Assembly: GCA_040377305.1 (NCBI GenBank)
Contig: JBEIPA010000015.1
Span: 66,842 to 130,841 of the forward strand
DNA length: 64,000 nt
Origin: Flavobacteriales bacterium
GTDB lineage: Bacteria > Bacteroidota > Bacteroidia > Palsa-965
Direction: 5' to 3'
Shown here: positions 40,682 to 47,951 of the stretch, one piece after another
How the letters are laid out: each line of letters begins with the position of its first letter
Position numbering within the stretch: position 1 is the first letter of the stretch
The notes under the pieces: model-generated
The model's input: the letters and a program-made list of their open reading frames with translations, nothing else
The model's database searches: none
Told to the model about the DNA's origin: nothing
Position numbers and translations under genes: made by a program

Positions 40682-43102
40682 ATGAAAAAAGGTTTACGAT
40701 TGAAAATTGCGGTTGCTGCATTGCTGCTTTCCGTTGGAATCTCTGCGCAGTCTTCGCTCAATACAACGCTTACTGATCAACTCGCTGTTCCAGGACAAAC
40801 ACTCGCAAACATTTGCGGTTACACGGCTCCGAACGGTAACGAATATGCATTACTTGGCGCAGAAGACGGAATGATTATCGTCGATGTTACGAATCCAAAT
40901 AACGTTACACAACTTGTTCAGATCCCAATGGTGTCGAGCCTTTGGAAGGAAATCAAAGTTTACCAGAACTACGCGTATGTGACTACGGAAGGTACCGGTG
41001 GCGCATTGCAGATTGTTGATCTTTCTGCAATTCCTGCTACAACTGCTGGCGCATATACATATCACACGTACACCGGCGATGGAGCAATCGCAGGACAGCT
41101 GAGCACTGTTCACGCTCTGCACATTGATACCGTAACGGGTTATTGCTACCTCTTCGGTTCAAACCTTTTTAACGGGGGCGCAATCTTCCTGGACATGAAC
41201 ACTGATCCATACAACCCGACTTATGCGGGTAAGTATGATGCAAACGGTTATGTGCACGATGGTTATGTTGACAACGACACACTTTTCGCAGGTCACATTT
41301 ACGCGGGAACATTTGCAATGGTTGATTGTACGAACAAATCGAATCCTGTTGTACTTGCCACGCAAACAACTCCAACAGCATTCACGCACAACACCTGGTT
41401 GTCTGCAGATCGTAACTTCATTTTCACGACAGACGAAAACTCAAACTCGTTCCTCACAGCTTATGATGTATCAAATCCAGGGAACGTTCAGGAAGTAGAT
41501 CGCATTCAGTCATGGAATCCAAATTCAGGGTCCATTGTACACAACACGCATGTTGTCGGGGAAAATTGGGCGGTGACATCGTGGTACAAAGACGGATTTG
41601 TAATTACAGACATCACGCGTCCGCACAACCTCGTTCATACAGGATGGTACGACACGTACGTGGGTAGCGGTACTGGTTTCGAAGGCGATTGGGGTGTTTA
41701 TCCGTATTTCCCTTCCGGAACAATCGTAGTGTCGAACATTGATGAAGGTCTGGACGTTTTCTCTCCAACTTATGTTCGTGCTTGTTACGTAGAAGGAAAC
41801 TGTTACGACAGCCTTTGCGGAACTCCGCTTCAAGGTGTAACGGTGACTGTTTCAACAGTAAACCTTTCTGAAACTACAGACAACAACGGCGACTATGCAA
41901 CAGGAACTCCGATCCCGGGAACTTATACAGTTACCTTCTCAAAAGTTGGATACACTTCGGTTGTATATAACAACGTTGTATTTGCACCAGGTCAAGTGAA
42001 TTTCTTCAACGTTGCGATGTTTGCACCGGGAGCTTTCTCATTGATCGGTCACGTTGAAGAGTCAACTACATTTTTAGCAGTTCCAAACGTTTCAGTTCAG
42101 GTTTCAAACGCAAGCAATTCTTACCTGTATGCAAGTGATGTGAACGGTGATTTCTCAAGCTGCACCGTTATTCCAGGTTGGTACGATATTGTCGCTGCAA
42201 CATGGGGTTATCAAACAATTTGCACGCAAGACAGCGTAACTCCTACAAGCGGAAACGTTGACGTAACACTCGATAGCGGATACGAAGACGAATTCACGTT
42301 TGATCTTGGCTGGACAGTTACCGGAAATGCAAGCAGCGGTCAGTGGGAGCGTGCTGAACCAATTGGTACAACATTCAACACGGCGAATGACGCAAATCCG
42401 GATTCGGACGTTAACAACGATTGTACTGATAAGTGTTACACGACCGGTAATGGTGGTGGAGCAGCAGCACAGGACGACGTAGATAACGGAAACACCATAC
42501 TCACTTCACCGTTGATGGATCTTTCTACATACGGAGATGCATGGATTCACTATAGCCGTTGGTTCTTTAACGATGGCGGAAGCGGAAATCCTAACGATAC
42601 AATGTACATCCGCGTGAGCAATGGTTCAACCACAGTTGTGTTGGAGAAAATTCACCAGGCATCTCCGGGTAATTCTTCATGGCAGACCAGCTCTTTCCGT
42701 TTGCAGAACTACATCACGGTAACTAACACCATGCGTGTAATTGTAGAAGTACGTGACTTCAACGCAGGTCACCTTGTAGAAGGAGCATTCGACAATTTCA
42801 TGGTGGTAGATTCTAATGCATTGTCAGTTGGAAGTCCGATCAATGCGAATCCTTCAATGCAGGTTTTCCCGAATCCATTCAACGGAACTTCACAAGTGAA
42901 TTATGTAATTCCGGTTGAACAGGTTGGAACAGCATCGATGGAAATCGTTGACATGACTGGCCGTGTTGTTGCAACTTCGGTGTTGAATGCACAATCGGGT
43001 TCTATGACGATCGGCGAATCACTTGCTGAAGGTGTGTATGTTGTTCGCATAGTTGGATCAGGAGAAATCCTTTCACAGCAGCGCATTGTAAAGTCCAAGT
43101 AG
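40682..43102 (+). CDS. Choice-of-anchor B family secreted protein with carboxypeptidase-regulatory-like domains and T9SS type A sorting domain
   Basis: Signal peptide; WKEIKVY, YVHDG, HNTW...TTDE, HNTH, WGVYPYFPSG; C-terminal VFPNPF...DMTGRVV...GVYVVRI. Confidence 0.88.
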   Translation: MKKGLRLKIAVAALLLSVGISAQSSLNTTLTDQLAVPGQTLANICGYTAPNGNEYALLGAEDGMIIVDVTNPNNVTQLVQIPMVSSLWKEIKVYQNYAYVTTEGTGGALQIVDLSAIPATTAGAYTYHTYTGDGAIAGQLSTVHALHIDTVTGYCYLFGSNLFNGGAIFLDMNTDPYNPTYAGKYDANGYVHDGYVDNDTLFAGHIYAGTFAMVDCTNKSNPVVLATQTTPTAFTHNTWLSADRNFIFTTDENSNSFLTAYDVSNPGNVQEVDRIQSWNPNSGSIVHNTHVVGENWAVTSWYKDGFVITDITRPHNLVHTGWYDTYVGSGTGFEGDWGVYPYFPSGTIVVSNIDEGLDVFSPTYVRACYVEGNCYDSLCGTPLQGVTVTVSTVNLSETTDNNGDYATGTPIPGTYTVTFSKVGYTSVVYNNVVFAPGQVNFFNVAMFAPGAFSLIGHVEESTTFLAVPNVSVQVSNASNSYLYASDVNGDFSSCTVIPGWYDIVAATWGYQTICTQDSVTPTSGNVDVTLDSGYEDEFTFDLGWTVTGNASSGQWERAEPIGTTFNTANDANPDSDVNNDCTDKCYTTGNGGGAAAQDDVDNGNTILTSPLMDLSTYGDAWIHYSRWFFNDGGSGNPNDTMYIRVSNGSTTVVLEKIHQASPGNSSWQTSSFRLQNYITVTNTMRVIVEVRDFNAGHLVEGAFDNFMVVDSNALSVGSPINANPSMQVFPNPFNGTSQVNYVIPVEQVGTASMEIVDMTGRVVATSVLNAQSGSMTIGESLAEGVYVVRIVGSGEILSQQRIVKSK

Positions 43103-43202: not shown

Positions 43203-43793
43203 ATGAAAAAAATCGGACTCACCGGTGGAATTGGTAGCGGCAAATCATACGTCGCTGATGTGTTCCGTCATTTAGCTGTTCCCATTTTTAATTCCGATGA
43301 CGAGGCGAGACGCATTCAGGAAACAGATCAGTCGGTGATCGACGAAATCCGTTCTTCATTCGGAGATGTTTTTCTCCCGGATGGAAAGCTTGATCGGAAG
43401 AAGCTGGCGTCAATCGTTTTCTCTGATGCGCAAAAACTGCAACAACTGAATGCAATCGTGCACCCTGCTGTCGGTAGAGCATTTGAAGCGTTCTGTGAGC
43501 AACATTCTGCTAAGCCTTACGTCATCAAGGAAGCTGCAATCATTTTTGAGGTGGGAATTGACGAACATCTCGACTCAACCATCCTTGTGACTTCGCCGGA
43601 GAAGATGCGAATAGAACGTGTCATGACGCGCGATTCAATTTCCGAAGCAGAAGTTCGCACACGTATGTCGAAACAATGGAGCGACGAAGAGAAAAAGTTG
43701 CGCGCCGATTATTTCATTGACAATGATGGTGAGAAAGCAATTCTACCTCAGGTGTTGAAAATCCATTCCGCGCTTAACGATCAGTCGAAGTAA
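43203..43793 (+). CDS. coaE: Dephospho-CoA kinase
   Basis: IGLTGGIGSGKS, LDRKKLA, LNAIVHP, EAAIIFE, RVMTRD. Confidence 0.96.
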   Translation: MKKIGLTGGIGSGKSYVADVFRHLAVPIFNSDDEARRIQETDQSVIDEIRSSFGDVFLPDGKLDRKKLASIVFSDAQKLQQLNAIVHPAVGRAFEAFCEQHSAKPYVIKEAAIIFEVGIDEHLDSTILVTSPEKMRIERVMTRDSISEAEVRTRMSKQWSDEEKKLRADYFIDNDGEKAILPQVLKIHSALNDQSK

Positions 43794-44125
43794 CGTCCAG
43801 TCCATCCATCCGGATTGTATAACATCATTAGTACCAGAATTGTGGCTCCAACAATGAATACGAGCAAGTGAGTGAAGTATGCCCGGTTCGTGAAATGCTG
43901 CCGAAGCCCTTTGTAAACCATCAGAACGATCCACAACGGAATTCCAATGTAGACGTAGTAGCGGAGAAACCAGTATAGAAGGTATTCATCCAGAGTCTCT
44001 CCACCAAAAACCCTTGGATTGAACTCGAGCAAGTAGAATAAATAGCACAGGCAAATCCACACTATCGGAACTGCTGTCAGAAAATTCAGAATATAATTTT
44101 CTGTTCTTCTCATGGTGCTACACAA
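43781..44125 (-). CDS. Small hypothetical membrane protein (3 TM)
   Basis: Three hydrophobic segments; directly follows the DUF4870-like gene; true start may be a few codons in (MRRTE). Confidence 0.65.
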   Translation of the reverse strand: MCSTMRRTENYILNFLTAVPIVWICLCYLFYLLEFNPRVFGGETLDEYLLYWFLRYYVYIGIPLWIVLMVYKGLRQHFTNRAYFTHLLVFIVGATILVLMMLYNPDGWTGRYFD

Positions 44126-44129
44126 AATA

Positions 44130-44507
44130 CTACTGAATGCCTGCCAGCATCTTATCGCTCAGATCGCCGATTAACGGAAGTTTCTTCGCTTTGCCGTTAG
44201 CCGCGTTTACGATACCGAGAATCACAAAAACCAAAAGTGAAATCTGAATCACTGGCAGTAGGACCCACAAAAACCACATGAACCAACCAATAGCTGTGAG
44301 GACCAGAATCGCTCCAACACCGAAGATGAAAAGACCGAGCGCCTGACGAATGTGAAAAGCTCCATACTTTGTCTTCTCAGACTGGTGCATGATGATCGCA
44401 ATAATGAATCCGATCAATGTGCAGTAAGCAAGAATTGCGATTGTTTTCCCTTTGTTTATGTCTTCAATGGGAATGATAGGATCAGCACTCGGGTTGTTGT
44501 AGTTCAT
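44130..44507 (-). CDS. DUF4870-like membrane protein
   Basis: GKTIAILAY...IGFIIA, FHIRQALGL, ILGIVNAANG...LPLIG; TATCTTTG at 44521-44528 upstream. Confidence 0.85.
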   Translation of the reverse strand: MNYNNPSADPIIPIEDINKGKTIAILAYCTLIGFIIAIIMHQSEKTKYGAFHIRQALGLFIFGVGAILVLTAIGWFMWFLWVLLPVIQISLLVFVILGIVNAANGKAKKLPLIGDLSDKMLAGIQ

Positions 44508-44551
44508 GGGAGTTTTTTTTCAAAGATACGATTTCGGGTAGGTCCGGTTAG

Positions 44552-44647
44552 GGCATTGGGGCATTAAGGCATTGGGGCATTAAGGCATTGGGGCAATAAG
44601 GCATTGGGGCAATAAGGCATTGGGGCATTAAGGCATTGGGGCATTAA
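44552..44647. repeat. Tandem repeat, 6 x 16 bp GGCATTGGGGCA(T/A)TAA
   Basis: Six contiguous units counted directly, followed by a degenerate seventh. Confidence 0.95.
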
Positions 44648-44715
44648 GGGATTGGGACTGTTCAGCATCAGGGAATAGCTTAATTACCAAATTGTCTTTT
44701 CACGTGTTAGTCTAT

Positions 44716-44775
44716 ATGCCTATTAGCCCAGTGCCCCAATGCCCAATTTCCCCAATGCCCCAATGCCCCAATGCC
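44716..44775. repeat. Complementary octamer arm (ATGCCCCA)n
   Basis: gtgcccca atgccca atttcccca atgcccca atgcccca atgcc is the reverse complement of the TGGGGCAT core. Confidence 0.85.
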
Positions 44776-44814
44776 TTTTTTCCTAATTTAGTCCCTCATT
44801 AGTAAAGCTATTCT

Positions 44815-45270
44815 ATGTCCAATCCTCCACCATTTCCACCACCGAATACACCACCACCACCTCCGGGCGGACCTAATAATCCGTATGGCAATAATCCCTA
44901 CGGTCAGAATCCGTACGGTAATAATCCATACAACAATCCGTATCAGCAGAATCCTATGGGCATGCAGCGGGATGTGCCTAACGCTACAGCGATTCTTGTG
45001 CTGGGGATTGTTTCAATCGTTGGTTGTTTCTGCTACGGTATCATTGGCTTGGGTTGCGGCATCGCAGCACTGATTATGGCAAGCAAAGCTATGCAGGAGT
45101 ATAATCAGAATCCTAGCATGTTTAAGGTTTCCTCTTATAACAACGCGAAGGCAGGACGAATTTGTGCAATTATTGGAACAATTATTTCAGGTTTAACATC
45201 CCTGTGGTGGATCTGCCTGGTGGTTTTAGGAATTGGTGGATCTTATTATAGCAATCCATATAACTGGTAA
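44815..45270 (+). CDS. CCC-motif / DUF4190-like membrane protein with P/N/Y-rich N-terminus
   Basis: PNATAILVLGIVSIVGCFCYGIIG...Y..NP......NAKAGRICAIIG; NNPYG repeats. Confidence 0.85.
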   Translation: MSNPPPFPPPNTPPPPPGGPNNPYGNNPYGQNPYGNNPYNNPYQQNPMGMQRDVPNATAILVLGIVSIVGCFCYGIIGLGCGIAALIMASKAMQEYNQNPSMFKVSSYNNAKAGRICAIIGTIISGLTSLWWICLVVLGIGGSYYSNPYNW

Positions 45271-45275
45271 CCGAA

Positions 45276-45581
45276 ATGAGTTGGATCGATTGGATCGAGC
45301 AGCACTTGTTACCTTGTCCGAGTAAATCTTTGTTCGGATTGGACTGCCCGGGATGCGGAATGCAACGATCGATGGTGGATTTGTTGAAAGGTAATTTCAC
45401 CGACAGTCTCAAAACGTATCCGGCGTTGATTCCGATTCTGATCACGCTTGTGTTTTTAGGATTGCATTTGCGCTACAAATTCAAGTATGGTTCAACCACA
45501 TTGCAATACGCGTATATTTTTTCAATGCTCATCGTAGTCACATCCTACGTAATAAAACAAGTTCAATTTTTCAATCCGTAA
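45276..45581 (+). CDS. DUF2752 family membrane protein
   Basis: PCPSKSLFGLDCPGCGMQRS...GNF..S...YP. Confidence 0.9.
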   Translation: MSWIDWIEQHLLPCPSKSLFGLDCPGCGMQRSMVDLLKGNFTDSLKTYPALIPILITLVFLGLHLRYKFKYGSTTLQYAYIFSMLIVVTSYVIKQVQFFNP

Positions 45582-45594
45582 AAAAACCGACAAC

Positions 45595-46050
45595 ATGGAA
45601 AACACAAACCCACCAATGCCACCTCCACCACCTCCGACCGGCAATCAGAATCCAAATTATCAACAGCAGAACCCAAATTATCAGCAGCAGAATCCAAACT
45701 TTCAGCAGCAACAAGGCTATCAGCAGAATTATCAGCAGATGCCTCCCGGTGGATACCAACAGCAGCCGTTTGGTACACAAATGGATCATCCAAAGGCAAG
45801 CACCATTCAAACACTTGGAATCGTTGGATTAATTCTTACTTTCCTCTTGGGGATTGTAGGCTTGATTCTGAACATTATTGCTCTCTCAATGAGCGGTGGA
45901 GTACTTTCTGAAATTGATAACAATCCTGGCCGTTACTCAGATGTGTCGAGAAGAAAAGTGAAAAGCGGTCGTACCTGCGCAATCATTGGTCTAAGTATTC
46001 AGGCTTTCGTAGTGGTCGTACTTGTATTAGTTTTACTTGCGAACGGTTAG
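45595..46050 (+). CDS. CCC-motif / DUF4190-like membrane protein with Q/N/Y-rich N-terminus
   Basis: QQQNPNY repeats; LGIVGL...NNPGRY...KSGRTCAIIG. Confidence 0.8.
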   Translation: MENTNPPMPPPPPPTGNQNPNYQQQNPNYQQQNPNFQQQQGYQQNYQQMPPGGYQQQPFGTQMDHPKASTIQTLGIVGLILTFLLGIVGLILNIIALSMSGGVLSEIDNNPGRYSDVSRRKVKSGRTCAIIGLSIQAFVVVVLVLVLLANG

Positions 46051-46058
46051 AAATTGAA

Positions 46059-46433
46059 ATGATGCAACAACAACAACCAACCGGTTACAACAATCCTTAT
46101 CCGCCACCTCCGGGTGGTGGATATCAACCTTTCAATCACGGTCAGGGCTTTGGTATTCCAACCGATGTTCCAGGAGCCGGTAGTGCACAGATCTGCGGCA
46201 TTATCGGATTGATTTTATTCTTCAACATAGTCGGAATTGTACTCAACATTGTGGCAATTGTGCAAGGTGCAAAAGCAATGACCGAGTACACCAACAATCC
46301 CGGTCGTTACACCGAAGCATCTTTCCGTAAAGCGAAAAGCGGCAAGACGTGTGGTATCGTCGGCTTGTGTTTATTCGGATTCGGCATCATTGTGTTTGTG
46401 ATGTTCATGTTAGCGTTTGCATCTAGTTTTTAG
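46059..46433 (+). CDS. CCC-motif / DUF4190-like membrane protein, third paralog
   Basis: Q/P/G/Y N-terminus; AMTEYTNNPGRY...KSGKTCGIVG. Confidence 0.8.
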   Translation: MMQQQQPTGYNNPYPPPPGGGYQPFNHGQGFGIPTDVPGAGSAQICGIIGLILFFNIVGIVLNIVAIVQGAKAMTEYTNNPGRYTEASFRKAKSGKTCGIVGLCLFGFGIIVFVMFMLAFASSF

Positions 46434-47951
46434 ATGAAGATTCTTTCCGCTACACAAATCAGAGAGGCTGATCTTTACACGATACAGAATGAGCCCGTTT
46501 CATCAGCTAATCTGATGGAGCGGGCTTCTCGTTTGTGTACGGAGTGGTTGTTGAAGAAATTCGATGAGCAATATGCATTTCTCATTGTGTGTGGCAATGG
46601 CAATAATGGTGGAGATGGACTCTGCATTGCTCGTCAGCTGCATGACGCCGGCAGAAATGTGGAAGTCAAAATTATTCATCCTGCGAAAGAAGACAGTGCC
46701 GATTTCACGCACAACCTGGAGCGTTTAAAGAACACAACAGTTGTGGTCGATGAATTCACGGCGACGTTCTCGTTGCGAAATAATCTGAACACACAGAAAA
46801 TCGTTCTCATCGATGCCATTTTTGGTTCAGGATTAACGCGTGAAGCTTCTGGATTATCTGCTGAAGCAATCGCTGCAATGAATAATGCGCCGTTTACGCG
46901 AATCGCAATTGACATTCCTTCCGGATTATTCTGCGATGATAATTCAGCGAGTTCAGGTGATCATGTTCTGCGCGCTGAATATACTTTGACGTTTCAGTTT
47001 CCGAAACTGGCGTTCATGTTTGCTGAAAATGCACAATTCGTAGGCGAGTTTCACCTATTGGACATTGCACTGCATCCTACTTTTCTTGCGGATGCCCAAA
47101 CGAATTTTCATTACGTCACACACAAAGGAGTTAAGCAGATTCTCGCCGACCGTTCGAAGTTCGCACACAAGGGCACATACGGTCACGCTTTGATCGTTGC
47201 GGGCTCGGAAGGAAAAACCGGCGCTGCTGTTCTCTGTTCGCGTGCAGCCTTGCGTTCAGGCGCAGGACTGGTAACTGCATTTGTTCCGAAAGTAAGTCGT
47301 GATGTAATGCAGGAAGCTGTTCCGGAAGCGATGACTATAACTGCCGACGAAGAGAAATTCATTAGTGGTCACATTCCTGCTTCGAAGTTTAACGCGATAG
47401 GAGTAGGACCAGGATTAGGAACTGATGCGCTTACTGCAAATTCACTCAAGACACTGATCGGTGAACAACAAGTGCAAATGGTTTGGGATGCCGATGCCCT
47501 GAATATTCTTGCGGAGAACAAAACGTGGCTTTCATTTATGCCCGCGCAAACTGTTCTAACGCCTCATCCGGGTGAATTCGATCGGCTTACGCAAAAGCAT
47601 TCTTCCGGTTTCGAACGAATGAAGTCGCAACTGGAATTCGCGGTGAGATACAATGTGATTGTCGTGCTGAAAGGTGCGCATACCTCGATCGCATTGCCGG
47701 ACGGAACGGTGTATTTCAATTCAACAGGCAATCCCGGAATGGCAACCGGAGGAAGTGGCGATGTACTGACAGGAGTAATAACCGCATTGCTTGCGCAAGG
47801 ATATTCACCTGTTCATGCTTCTGTGGCTGGTGTGTATCTGCATGGTTTGGCTGGAGATCTGGCCGCATCGGTACAAGGAATGCATTCGATGATTGCAGGC
47901 GATATCATTGAGAATCTGGGCGGAGCTTACCGTATGATTCTGGAAAATTAG
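46434..47951 (+). CDS. nnr: Bifunctional NAD(P)H-hydrate epimerase/dehydratase (YjeF/Nnr)
   Basis: GNGNNGGDG, DAIFGSG, DIPSG, HKGTYG, GPGLG, DADALN, TPHPGE, ATGGSGDVL. Confidence 0.96.
   Translation: MKILSATQIREADLYTIQNEPVSSANLMERASRLCTEWLLKKFDEQYAFLIVCGNGNNGGDGLCIARQLHDAGRNVEVKIIHPAKEDSADFTHNLERLKNTTVVVDEFTATFSLRNNLNTQKIVLIDAIFGSGLTREASGLSAEAIAAMNNAPFTRIAIDIPSGLFCDDNSASSGDHVLRAEYTLTFQFPKLAFMFAENAQFVGEFHLLDIALHPTFLADAQTNFHYVTHKGVKQILADRSKFAHKGTYGHALIVAGSEGKTGAAVLCSRAALRSGAGLVTAFVPKVSRDVMQEAVPEAMTITADEEKFISGHIPASKFNAIGVGPGLGTDALTANSLKTLIGEQQVQMVWDADALNILAENKTWLSFMPAQTVLTPHPGEFDRLTQKHSSGFERMKSQLEFAVRYNVIVVLKGAHTSIALPDGTVYFNSTGNPGMATGGSGDVLTGVITALLAQGYSPVHASVAGVYLHGLAGDLAASVQGMHSMIAGDIIENLGGAYRMILEN

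Follow-up and report, generated by a model that had tools for sequence, protein, structure and literature searches.

A recurrent pair of CCC and DUF2752 membrane proteins within a flavobacterial gene cluster with proline-rich heads

What is conserved in a cluster of six small membrane proteins, three of which begin with low-complexity heads of glutamine, asparagine, tyrosine, proline and glycine (Q/N/Y/P/G)? This question is raised by positions 43781-46433 of the window, i.e. the stretch of 64,000 nucleotides from a Flavobacteriales bacterium that was analyzed here as a whole (GenBank assembly GCA_040377305.1, contig JBEIPA010000015.1, positions 66,842 to 130,841 of the forward strand). An initial annotation had described six open reading frames (ORFs), three of them with such heads, and all six are indeed present, bounded by coaE and a NAD(P)HX repair gene (Table 1). 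That annotation saw in them a membrane complex organized by prion-like tails. As judged from sequence comparisons, the conserved core is rather a pair, formed by a protein of the family here termed CCC and by a DUF2752 protein, and the six genes are not one conserved unit.

The recurrent pair and the distant kinship of its CCC member with dispanins

Three of the six proteins are CCC paralogs. CCC1 belongs to the NCBIfam family NF040945 (84.7 bits, cut-off 65) and also passes the cut-off of MpPF26 (PF07666; 56.7 bits, cut-off 37.2), which is the best Pfam family of CCC1 and CCC3. In these respects CCC1 is a regular family member, whereas CCC2 and CCC3 remain below the 65-bit cut-off with 55.3 and 46.3 bits and lack the cysteine cluster, and all three carry long proline-rich heads, which are missing from most of the family members sampled outside the genus. 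The earlier assignment as CCC/DUF4190-like proteins therefore holds at the NF040945 cut-off for CCC1 only, and the DUF4190 part falls below cut-off in all three. The core motif that had been read, A...Y..NP..Y, is approximate, as CCC2 lacks the first tyrosine and CCC1 has phenylalanine in place of the second, but the observation that only CCC1 keeps a cysteine cluster was correct: the apex cysteines C71 and C73 are found in this paralog alone, and a cysteine in the last helix is kept by all three. By tree and alignment, CCC2 and CCC3 are diverged paralogs.

The pairing with DUF2752 was counted at the best 80 of at least 595 confirmed DUF2752 loci in GTDB. At 70 of these 80, a same-strand CCC ORF lies no more than 500 bases away, a count that rises to 72 when all six frames are checked. 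Among 301 evenly drawn Bacteroidota genomes, NF040945 occurs in 30 and PF10825, the DUF2752 family, in 152; the latter comprises 12,615 clusters at 50% identity. In each of the 17 published genus relatives at which the locus was read, DUF2752 directly follows a CCC gene that has kept one or both apex cysteines. Seven of these have a single CCC copy, and the other ten have one to three more downstream (copy number 1 to 4), with 10 of the 16 extra copies being cysteine-less. CCC2 was matched in 22 of 24 genus genomes, a tally that includes the unpublished genome G012. As the cysteine-less copies cluster together in a quick tree (support 87, not starred) and as both CCC2 and CCC3 are represented in further species, the sequence data speak for retained cysteine-less duplicates and not for decay. 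A search for fusions, in which 7,999 longer candidates were scored, gave three matches. In one of them, a single sequence is joined to the NAD(P)HX repair gene next door, which we treat as a reflection of adjacency, not of function; with this number of candidates the evidence is weak. The repair gene follows the cluster in 14 of the 17 published relatives.

The NF040945 model also picked up CD225 proteins, and therefore the CCC and CD225 profiles were compared. HHalign aligned the CCC family (103 rows) with bacterial CD225 (53 rows) at 95.2% and E 2.6e-8, with the cysteines of both families in register, while the controls gave 1.6% (DUF2752-CD225), 11.3% (CCC-DUF4870), 1.6% (CCC-TM2) and 5.7% (CD225-TM2), so that at profile level no homology was found for the pairs CCC-TM2, CD225-TM2 and CCC-DUF4870. 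Of the 103 aligned CCC relatives, 101 match MpPF26 at E 0.1 and 14 match the CD225 model PF04505, albeit weakly (best E 0.0024); PF04505 has no match in the three CCC proteins or anywhere else in the genome. The CD225 profile in turn matches PRRT1 (9zks_M) at E 1e-15. Dispanins, as characterized in PMC3282796 (this and the other papers are cited from excerpts), are marked by C-C or C-x-C within their first hydrophobic segment, by a loop of basic character and by a glycine in the second helix. The CCC family has all three features, with an apex cysteine in 97% of the 103 rows, a mean of 4.4 lysines and arginines in the loop and a nearly invariant G72. In the AlphaFold model of CCC1 (predicted local distance difference test, pLDDT, 85.7), C71 and C73 lie at the turn that joins two helices, and the basic loop and a long C-terminal helix follow. 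Its layout matches the order described for PRRT1, in which a proline-rich cytoplasmic N-terminus precedes a re-entrant helix with two apex cysteines and then TM2 (bioRxiv 10.64898/2026.06.24.734257). Fold searches with the CCC1 and DUF2752 models returned generic helical matches only, PRRT1 not being among the matches listed, and a sequence search of the PDB with both profiles gave designed proteins or chance matches only.

The CCC family thus shares with CD225/dispanin proteins (PF04505; PRRT1/SynDIG4, IFITM3 and bacterial dispanins) the aligned cysteines, the proline-rich N-terminus, the hairpin with apex cysteine, the basic loop and the C-terminal helix, and bacterial CD225 proteins likewise adjoin DUF2752 (5 of the 90 loci described below). 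It differs from them in its longer hairpin and in an N-P-x-x-Y loop. Judged at profile level, it is a distant relative of the dispanins, but because the G-D motif is missing and PF04505 is unmatched, the CCC proteins are not filed as dispanins.

The cysteines of DUF2752 and a putative metal site

The DUF2752 protein was recognized correctly from its C-x9-CPGCG motif (PF10825, 66 bits, cut-off 27). The motif C-x9-C-x-G-C-G is invariant in 93 close rows, and the invariant residues are C14, C24, G26, C27, G28, Q30, R31 and G39. To what kind of gene does such a protein belong? We read 90 of 171 Bacteroidota matches (the 30 best and 60 picked down the list), with the names of neighbouring families checked on representatives. 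The nearest same-strand neighbour belongs to TM2 in 54 cases, to CCC in 9, to CD225 in 5, to DUF4234 in 4, to DUF7544 in 4 and to Pmp3 in 2, and 12 loci have none. The statement that DUF2752 adjoins CD225 and TM2 types is thereby supported. All 78 neighbours from the six families carry a membrane cysteine: by a fixed test, 72 have one near glycine or proline, as compared to 90 of the 202 small membrane ORFs in the present genome, and the other six show the cysteine on inspection. Among TM2 proteins, a membrane cysteine was found in 55 of 57 beside DUF2752 versus 17 of 34 elsewhere (three rows without motif were dropped, one was mis-extracted, and 2 of 40 stretches had no TM2 match). The pairs with TM2, CD225, DUF4234, DUF7544 and Pmp3 thus have the same triad of cysteines and the same kind of small cysteine-bearing membrane neighbour, with DUF4870 as an occasional third gene; what sets the present locus apart is a CCC partner in three copies and a DUF2752 protein without the extra N-terminal helix of many others.

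The third cysteine of the triad is not strictly fixed across the phylum. In 90 parsed sequences (two were unparsed) it is Cys in 81, Asp in 4, Glu in 4 and His in 1, and never Ser or Ala. Since Asp, Glu and His are metal ligands and none of them could keep a disulfide, a metal role fits better than a redox role. Of the earlier proposal of a cysteine-based metal or redox partner, the cysteine basis and the metal variant have thus gained ground, whereas the redox variant fits less well. In the variant loci (L221, L227-L234), the invariant arginine is mostly histidine, and all of them adjoin TM2 genes. Basic residues precede the extra N-terminal helix in 49 of the 51 DUF2752 proteins that have one, and the loop that joins the last two helices is basic as well; for these reasons the triad is predicted to be periplasmic, on the membrane side opposite the heads, which speaks against a complex that is organized by these tails. 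C24-x-x-C27 lies at the start of a predicted helix in the model.

The ESM Atlas contained no usable DUF2752 match outside PF10825. A second DUF2752 gene of this genome lies directly behind the gene of a Pmp3/YqaE protein that resembles a lipoprotein and has a C-x-x-C motif within its hairpin (L002:5446-6344; G000:C10:96445-97343), and in Subdoligranulum a cysteine-rich TM2-type gene precedes DUF2752. At another locus (L212:1268-2812), DUF2752 is accompanied by a membrane protein with a C-C motif and by a gene in which Cys and C-x-x-C form a similar pattern; the latter resembles DUF2085 and may be distantly related to DUF2752.

How could such a pair work? In the reading that we favour, with a probability of about 0.45, the cluster would be an expanded copy of a two-gene inner-membrane module of a dispanin-like CCC protein and DUF2752. 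At its predicted periplasmic face, DUF2752 would provide three ligands for a metal ion (probably zinc), and the fourth ligand would be the cysteine at the tip of the CCC membrane hairpin, which completes the site and joins both proteins in a small membrane complex. The cysteine-less CCC2 and CCC3 would be accessory, either joining as non-metal subunits or acting alone, and the proline-rich heads would serve as docking tails, possibly for GYF-type readers, comparable to the N-terminus of PRRT1, which is rich in proline as well. By analogy to the dispanins, such a module may be an auxiliary regulator of membrane proteins or of the shape of the membrane, in which the link between metal and thiol would be the on/off switch that replaces the palmitoyl group of animals. 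The observations behind this proposal are the CCC-DUF2752 pairing, the CD225 homology, the cysteine in every identified neighbour, and the Cys/Asp/Glu/His pattern. The complex prediction that had been suggested was carried out for the CCC1 core with DUF2752 and zinc and scored 0.56, as compared to 0.01 for the best control. In the calibration, 116 of 157 solved pairs came up to the mark, as did 2 of 215 mismatched ones; only 18 of the 157 solved pairs, yet both mismatches, did so with a score of 0.60 or less, and the present job is unlike those of the calibration. With at least 86% of contacts shared between runs and a partner pLDDT of at least 73, the prediction weakly favours a complex of CCC1 and DUF2752.

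Several points weigh against this reading. The metal, the topology and the physical complex are all deduced. The complex prediction yielded no interface, so the cysteines were not seen to meet, and that the CCC cysteine reaches a periplasmic site is an assumption; in PRRT1, the re-entrant cysteines reach only the middle of the bilayer (bioRxiv 10.64898/2026.06.24.734257). The dispanin G-D loop motif is absent from the CCC family, whose loop consensus is N-P-x-x-Y. Eight of the best 80 GTDB loci have no CCC gene in the stretch examined, and 12 of the 90 Bacteroidota loci have no neighbour called by hidden Markov models; four of these 12 have one when read by hand, three with a cysteine and one, the GYF-bearing neighbour at L154, without. 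Half of the TM2 proteins away from DUF2752 also carry a cysteine, and the TM2 association has no power on independent pairs (two supported pairs). The Asp/Glu/His variants come from nine loci with two family codes and thus from few independent events. The association of a GYF_2 gene with heads, described below, stems from few clades and has no support from independent pairs.

Low-complexity heads and flanking genes

The heads of CCC1, CCC2 and CCC3 (54, 65 and 37 residues) consist to 73-83% of Q/N/Y/P/G and contain one or two charged residues; those of CCC1 and CCC2 are underlain by tandem repeats in the DNA. With our own PLAAC-like implementation, which is not the PLAAC program and does not take its frequency tables from it, the 60-residue scores are 27.7 for CCC1, 45.1 for CCC2 and 4.7 for CCC3, placing CCC2 fourth and CCC1 fourteenth among the 10,872 ORFs of the genome. 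Relative to a log-likelihood ratio (LLR) of 20, the threshold for prion-like regions used in PMC6400439, CCC1 and CCC2 are above and CCC3 is below. The resemblance to yeast prion repeats that had been noted thus holds by this score for two of the three heads, and in composition insofar as Sup35-type domains are likewise Q/N/Y/G-rich, nearly uncharged and built of short repeats. It ends with proline, which makes up 22-34% of the heads as compared to about 5% in the prion frequency table used, and with their small size (37-65 residues), their tethering to the membrane and their lack of conservation across the family. A high proline content argues against amyloid, but not against weak clustering. 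As the heads are proline-rich and their longest proline-free runs are short (6, 15 and 9 residues in CCC1, CCC2 and CCC3), amyloid formation is disfavoured, and the heads are likely disordered cytoplasmic docking tails rather than amyloid prion domains.

The initial annotation had made its idea depend on the conservation of head composition among homologues. Within the genus this is found: all 32 copies have heads of 27-93 residues with 69-84% Q/N/Y/P/G and variable repeats. At family level it is not found, as 16 of 19 CCC copies outside the genus have heads of at most 9 residues, mostly still beside DUF2752, and at the best 80 GTDB loci (82 rows, including three second-domain duplicates) the median head has 22 residues and only 6 of 37 heads with at least 25 residues reach 70% Q/N/Y/P/G. 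By this comparison of sequences, the heads are a lineage-specific add-on and the least general part of the cluster.

Four further loci of the genome encode unrelated membrane proteins with similar tails, including a fourth CCC protein without DUF2752. About ten membrane proteins of this genome carry such tails. One locus (L001:4842-6917; G000:C4:64841-66916) has four small membrane genes, among them this fourth CCC gene with a short head and two unnamed ones with C-terminal Q/N/P/Y tails, and no DUF2752. At another (L004:3527-5748; G000:C46:20526-22747), three tandem paralogous membrane proteins (weak DUF4328) have C-terminal Q/P/Y tails like the two in the C4 cluster. The second-highest PLAAC-like score of the genome (45.9) belongs to an ORF with a long Q/N-rich insertion (L003:2179-3999; G000:C43:7178-8998), which we take to be a putative transcription terminator Rho. 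A candidate reader of the heads is the single GYF_2 domain of the genome, which is part of an SPFH protein. This SPFH protein (L141:565-3009; G000:C21:58179-60623) also has a Q/N/G linker and poly-proline runs, and its gene is followed by one for a membrane-anchored protein with a zinc ribbon. A GYF domain from Myxococcus binds a proline-rich sequence (PMC11135422), and a GYF_2 gene is present in 22 of 23 genomes with proline-rich heads versus 17 of 49 others (77 genomes assembled, 5 dropped, 72 counted).

Table 1. Features in and around the cluster (window positions)
Feature	Position	Strand	Remarks
coaE, dephospho-CoA kinase	43203-43793	+	left flank, convergent
Small membrane protein, 110 aa ('3-TM' gene)	43781-44113	-	no family match; bystander
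DUF4870 protein, 125 aa	44130-44507	-	divergent, accessory; Pfam PF09685
Repeat hairpin, intergenic	44548-44775	.	8/16-base tandem repeats on both arms; outside the conserved module
CCC1 (CCC paralog 1), 151 aa	44815-45270	+	NF040945/MpPF26; head residues 1-54, Pro/Asn/Tyr/Gly; conserved DUF2752 partner
CCC1 architecture	44815-45270	+	head; hairpin, its predicted turn bearing C71 and C73; loop rich in K/R; C-terminal helix
DUF2752 protein, 101 aa	45276-45581	+	Pfam PF10825; conserved motif, then two membrane helices
CCC2 (CCC paralog 2), 151 aa	45595-46050	+	no apex cysteine; Q/N-rich head of 65 residues; orthologues elsewhere in the genus
CCC3 (CCC paralog 3), 124 aa	46059-46433	+	no apex cysteine; 37-residue Q/P/G head
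NAD(P)HX epimerase/dehydratase	46434-47951	+	right flank

CCC1, DUF2752, CCC2 and CCC3 are co-directional with gaps of 5, 13 and 8 bases, and the CCC3 stop is immediately followed by the NAD(P)HX epimerase/dehydratase gene, which starts at 46434. Upstream, a 230-base repeat hairpin (z -6.9), which the annotation had passed over, separates the divergent DUF4870 gene from CCC1; it belongs to a family of repeats that is dispersed in the genome and resembles repetitive extragenic palindromes (REP) or miniature inverted-repeat transposable elements (MITE), with short kindred copies at more than a dozen other places. A promoter scan remained at chance level (10 versus 8.4).

The two divergent genes had been described as DUF4870-like and 3-TM. 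The former passes PF09685 marginally (25.1 bits, cut-off 25) and shares the H and Q columns of operon-linked DUF4870 proteins. It has matches in 15 of 24 genus genomes, seven of them divergent beside a CCC gene, and DUF4870 lies within 600 bases of DUF2752 at 8 of the 90 phylum loci, which makes it an occasional companion, accessory to the pair. The 110-aa protein is divergently encoded and of the membrane type, but in a hydropathy scan it has two strong hydrophobic stretches and a weaker third one. No intact match was found among the 24 genus genomes, and there are two full-length homologues elsewhere (55-61% identity); this gene is real but unrelated, a bystander. Upstream of coaE, at 40682-43102, the window encodes a choice-of-anchor B protein secreted by the type IX secretion system (T9SS), and several genus relatives have the same neighbourhood.

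Alternatives and meaning

What alternatives exist for a shared metal-thiol site? The most probable of them, though unlikely in itself, is that DUF2752 is a minimal periplasmic thiol-disulfide relay that oxidizes or reduces the hairpin cysteines of its partners. DsbB and VKOR have a C-x-x-C at a helix start plus a loop cysteine. C24-x-x-C27 is placed alike, the triad is predicted to be periplasmic and the partners carry one to three cysteines; but in 9 of 90 proteins the second cysteine of C-x-x-C is Asp, Glu or His, so that no disulfide is possible, and with about 100 residues there is no quinone-binding bundle evident in the model. It is likewise unlikely, and ranks next, that CCC and DUF2752 are only co-regulated neighbours, DUF2752 binding its metal by its own or homodimer ligands without contact to CCC. 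Orphan DUF2752 genes do exist (8 of 90 have no neighbour even by hand), the fourth CCC gene has no DUF2752 beside it, and the complex score is in the weak range. Such a view would have to explain why six neighbour families converge on a membrane cysteine, and why the paralog next to DUF2752 keeps its cysteine in 17 of 17 relatives. By functional analogy only, DUF2752 could also be a zinc-dependent thiol transferase that attaches a lipid or another group to the partner cysteine, as a bacterial counterpart of the S-palmitoylation of dispanins, which we hold to be rather improbable. MetH, MetE, BHMT and farnesyltransferase do bind a substrate thiolate at the open position of a zinc site with three Cys/Asp/Glu/His ligands (PMC539065); a relation of DUF2752 to these enzymes in sequence or fold was neither tested for nor found. 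IFITM3 carries its palmitoyl groups at the aligned cysteines, and so does a mycobacterial dispanin in human cells (PMC4488726). One small protein that serves six families would suit an enzyme, as would the invariant Q30 and R31 after the triad. But this 100-residue membrane protein with its putative metal site is very small for an enzyme, no donor-binding domain or donor gene is nearby, the predicted periplasmic site is distant from acyl-CoA, bacterial proteins are not S-palmitoylated according to the excerpt of PMC3282796, and one-to-one pairing of genes better suits a stoichiometric partner.

The original idea, in which cytoplasmic prion-like heads cluster or condense a complex of six proteins in envelope stress, appears rather improbable as well. 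It draws on the two heads above the prion-like threshold and within the top 14 ORFs of the genome (by the PLAAC-like score), on a composition kept in 32 of 32 genus copies, on about ten tail-bearing membrane proteins that would permit weak multivalent clustering, and on the recurrence of DUF4870 near the module. However, the CCC-DUF2752 pair is widespread without heads (at most 9 residues in 16 of 19 copies), the heads are interrupted by prolines, and the 3-TM gene is not conserved; the six-protein version is thus not supported. Low evolutionary coverage is also usual for bacterial prion-like regions (PMC6400439). Least probable of all is an IFITM-like system against phages or superinfection that blocks DNA entry, an option that the annotation had raised as phage exclusion. 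The distant homology to the family of the antiviral IFITMs and the variable CCC copy number (1 to 4) across the genus would agree with it, but tailed phages are not known to enter by membrane fusion, and none of the six proteins has a PADLOC or PHROG match at E 0.01. Among 50,697 phage records DUF2752 has 2 matches, both weak, and among 72,556 plasmid records it has 3. The cluster also lies in a stable neighbourhood of coaE and the NAD(P)HX repair gene, a fixed site of the housekeeping type, with the repair gene following in 14 of 17 relatives.

The metal-thiol reading can be widened. DUF2752 might be a general bacterial adaptor for cysteine hairpins, a very small metalloprotein of the membrane by which the hairpin cysteine is captured or lipidated in dispanin, CCC, TM2, Pmp3, DUF4234 and DUF7544 proteins, and the proline-rich tails of this genus might couple such a switch to GYF/SPFH scaffolds or condensates. 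We regard this extension as conceivable but doubtful.

Our literature search found neither DUF2752 nor the CCC family named in papers, a result that covers sources other than subscription journals and supplements, which may bear on the claim that the pair is undescribed, and it returned nothing relevant on bacterial S-acylation or on TM2 operons. Both families have already been named in databases of families, without a function; what is new is the CCC branch, the cysteine rule across six families, and the ligand swaps. The kin of the dispanins is thereby extended to the CCC/MpPF26 family. When the dispanins were defined, it was asked what the double cysteine is retained for in bacteria, from which no S-palmitoylation is known (PMC3282796, excerpt). 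The locus offers a testable answer to this question, as a widespread partner with an apparently open metal site lies beside proteins with cysteine hairpins, and the cysteine-less paralogs provide natural controls within one operon. If the adaptor reading were true, it would describe the ancestral use of the di-cysteine that is palmitoylated in animal IFITM3 and PRRT1.

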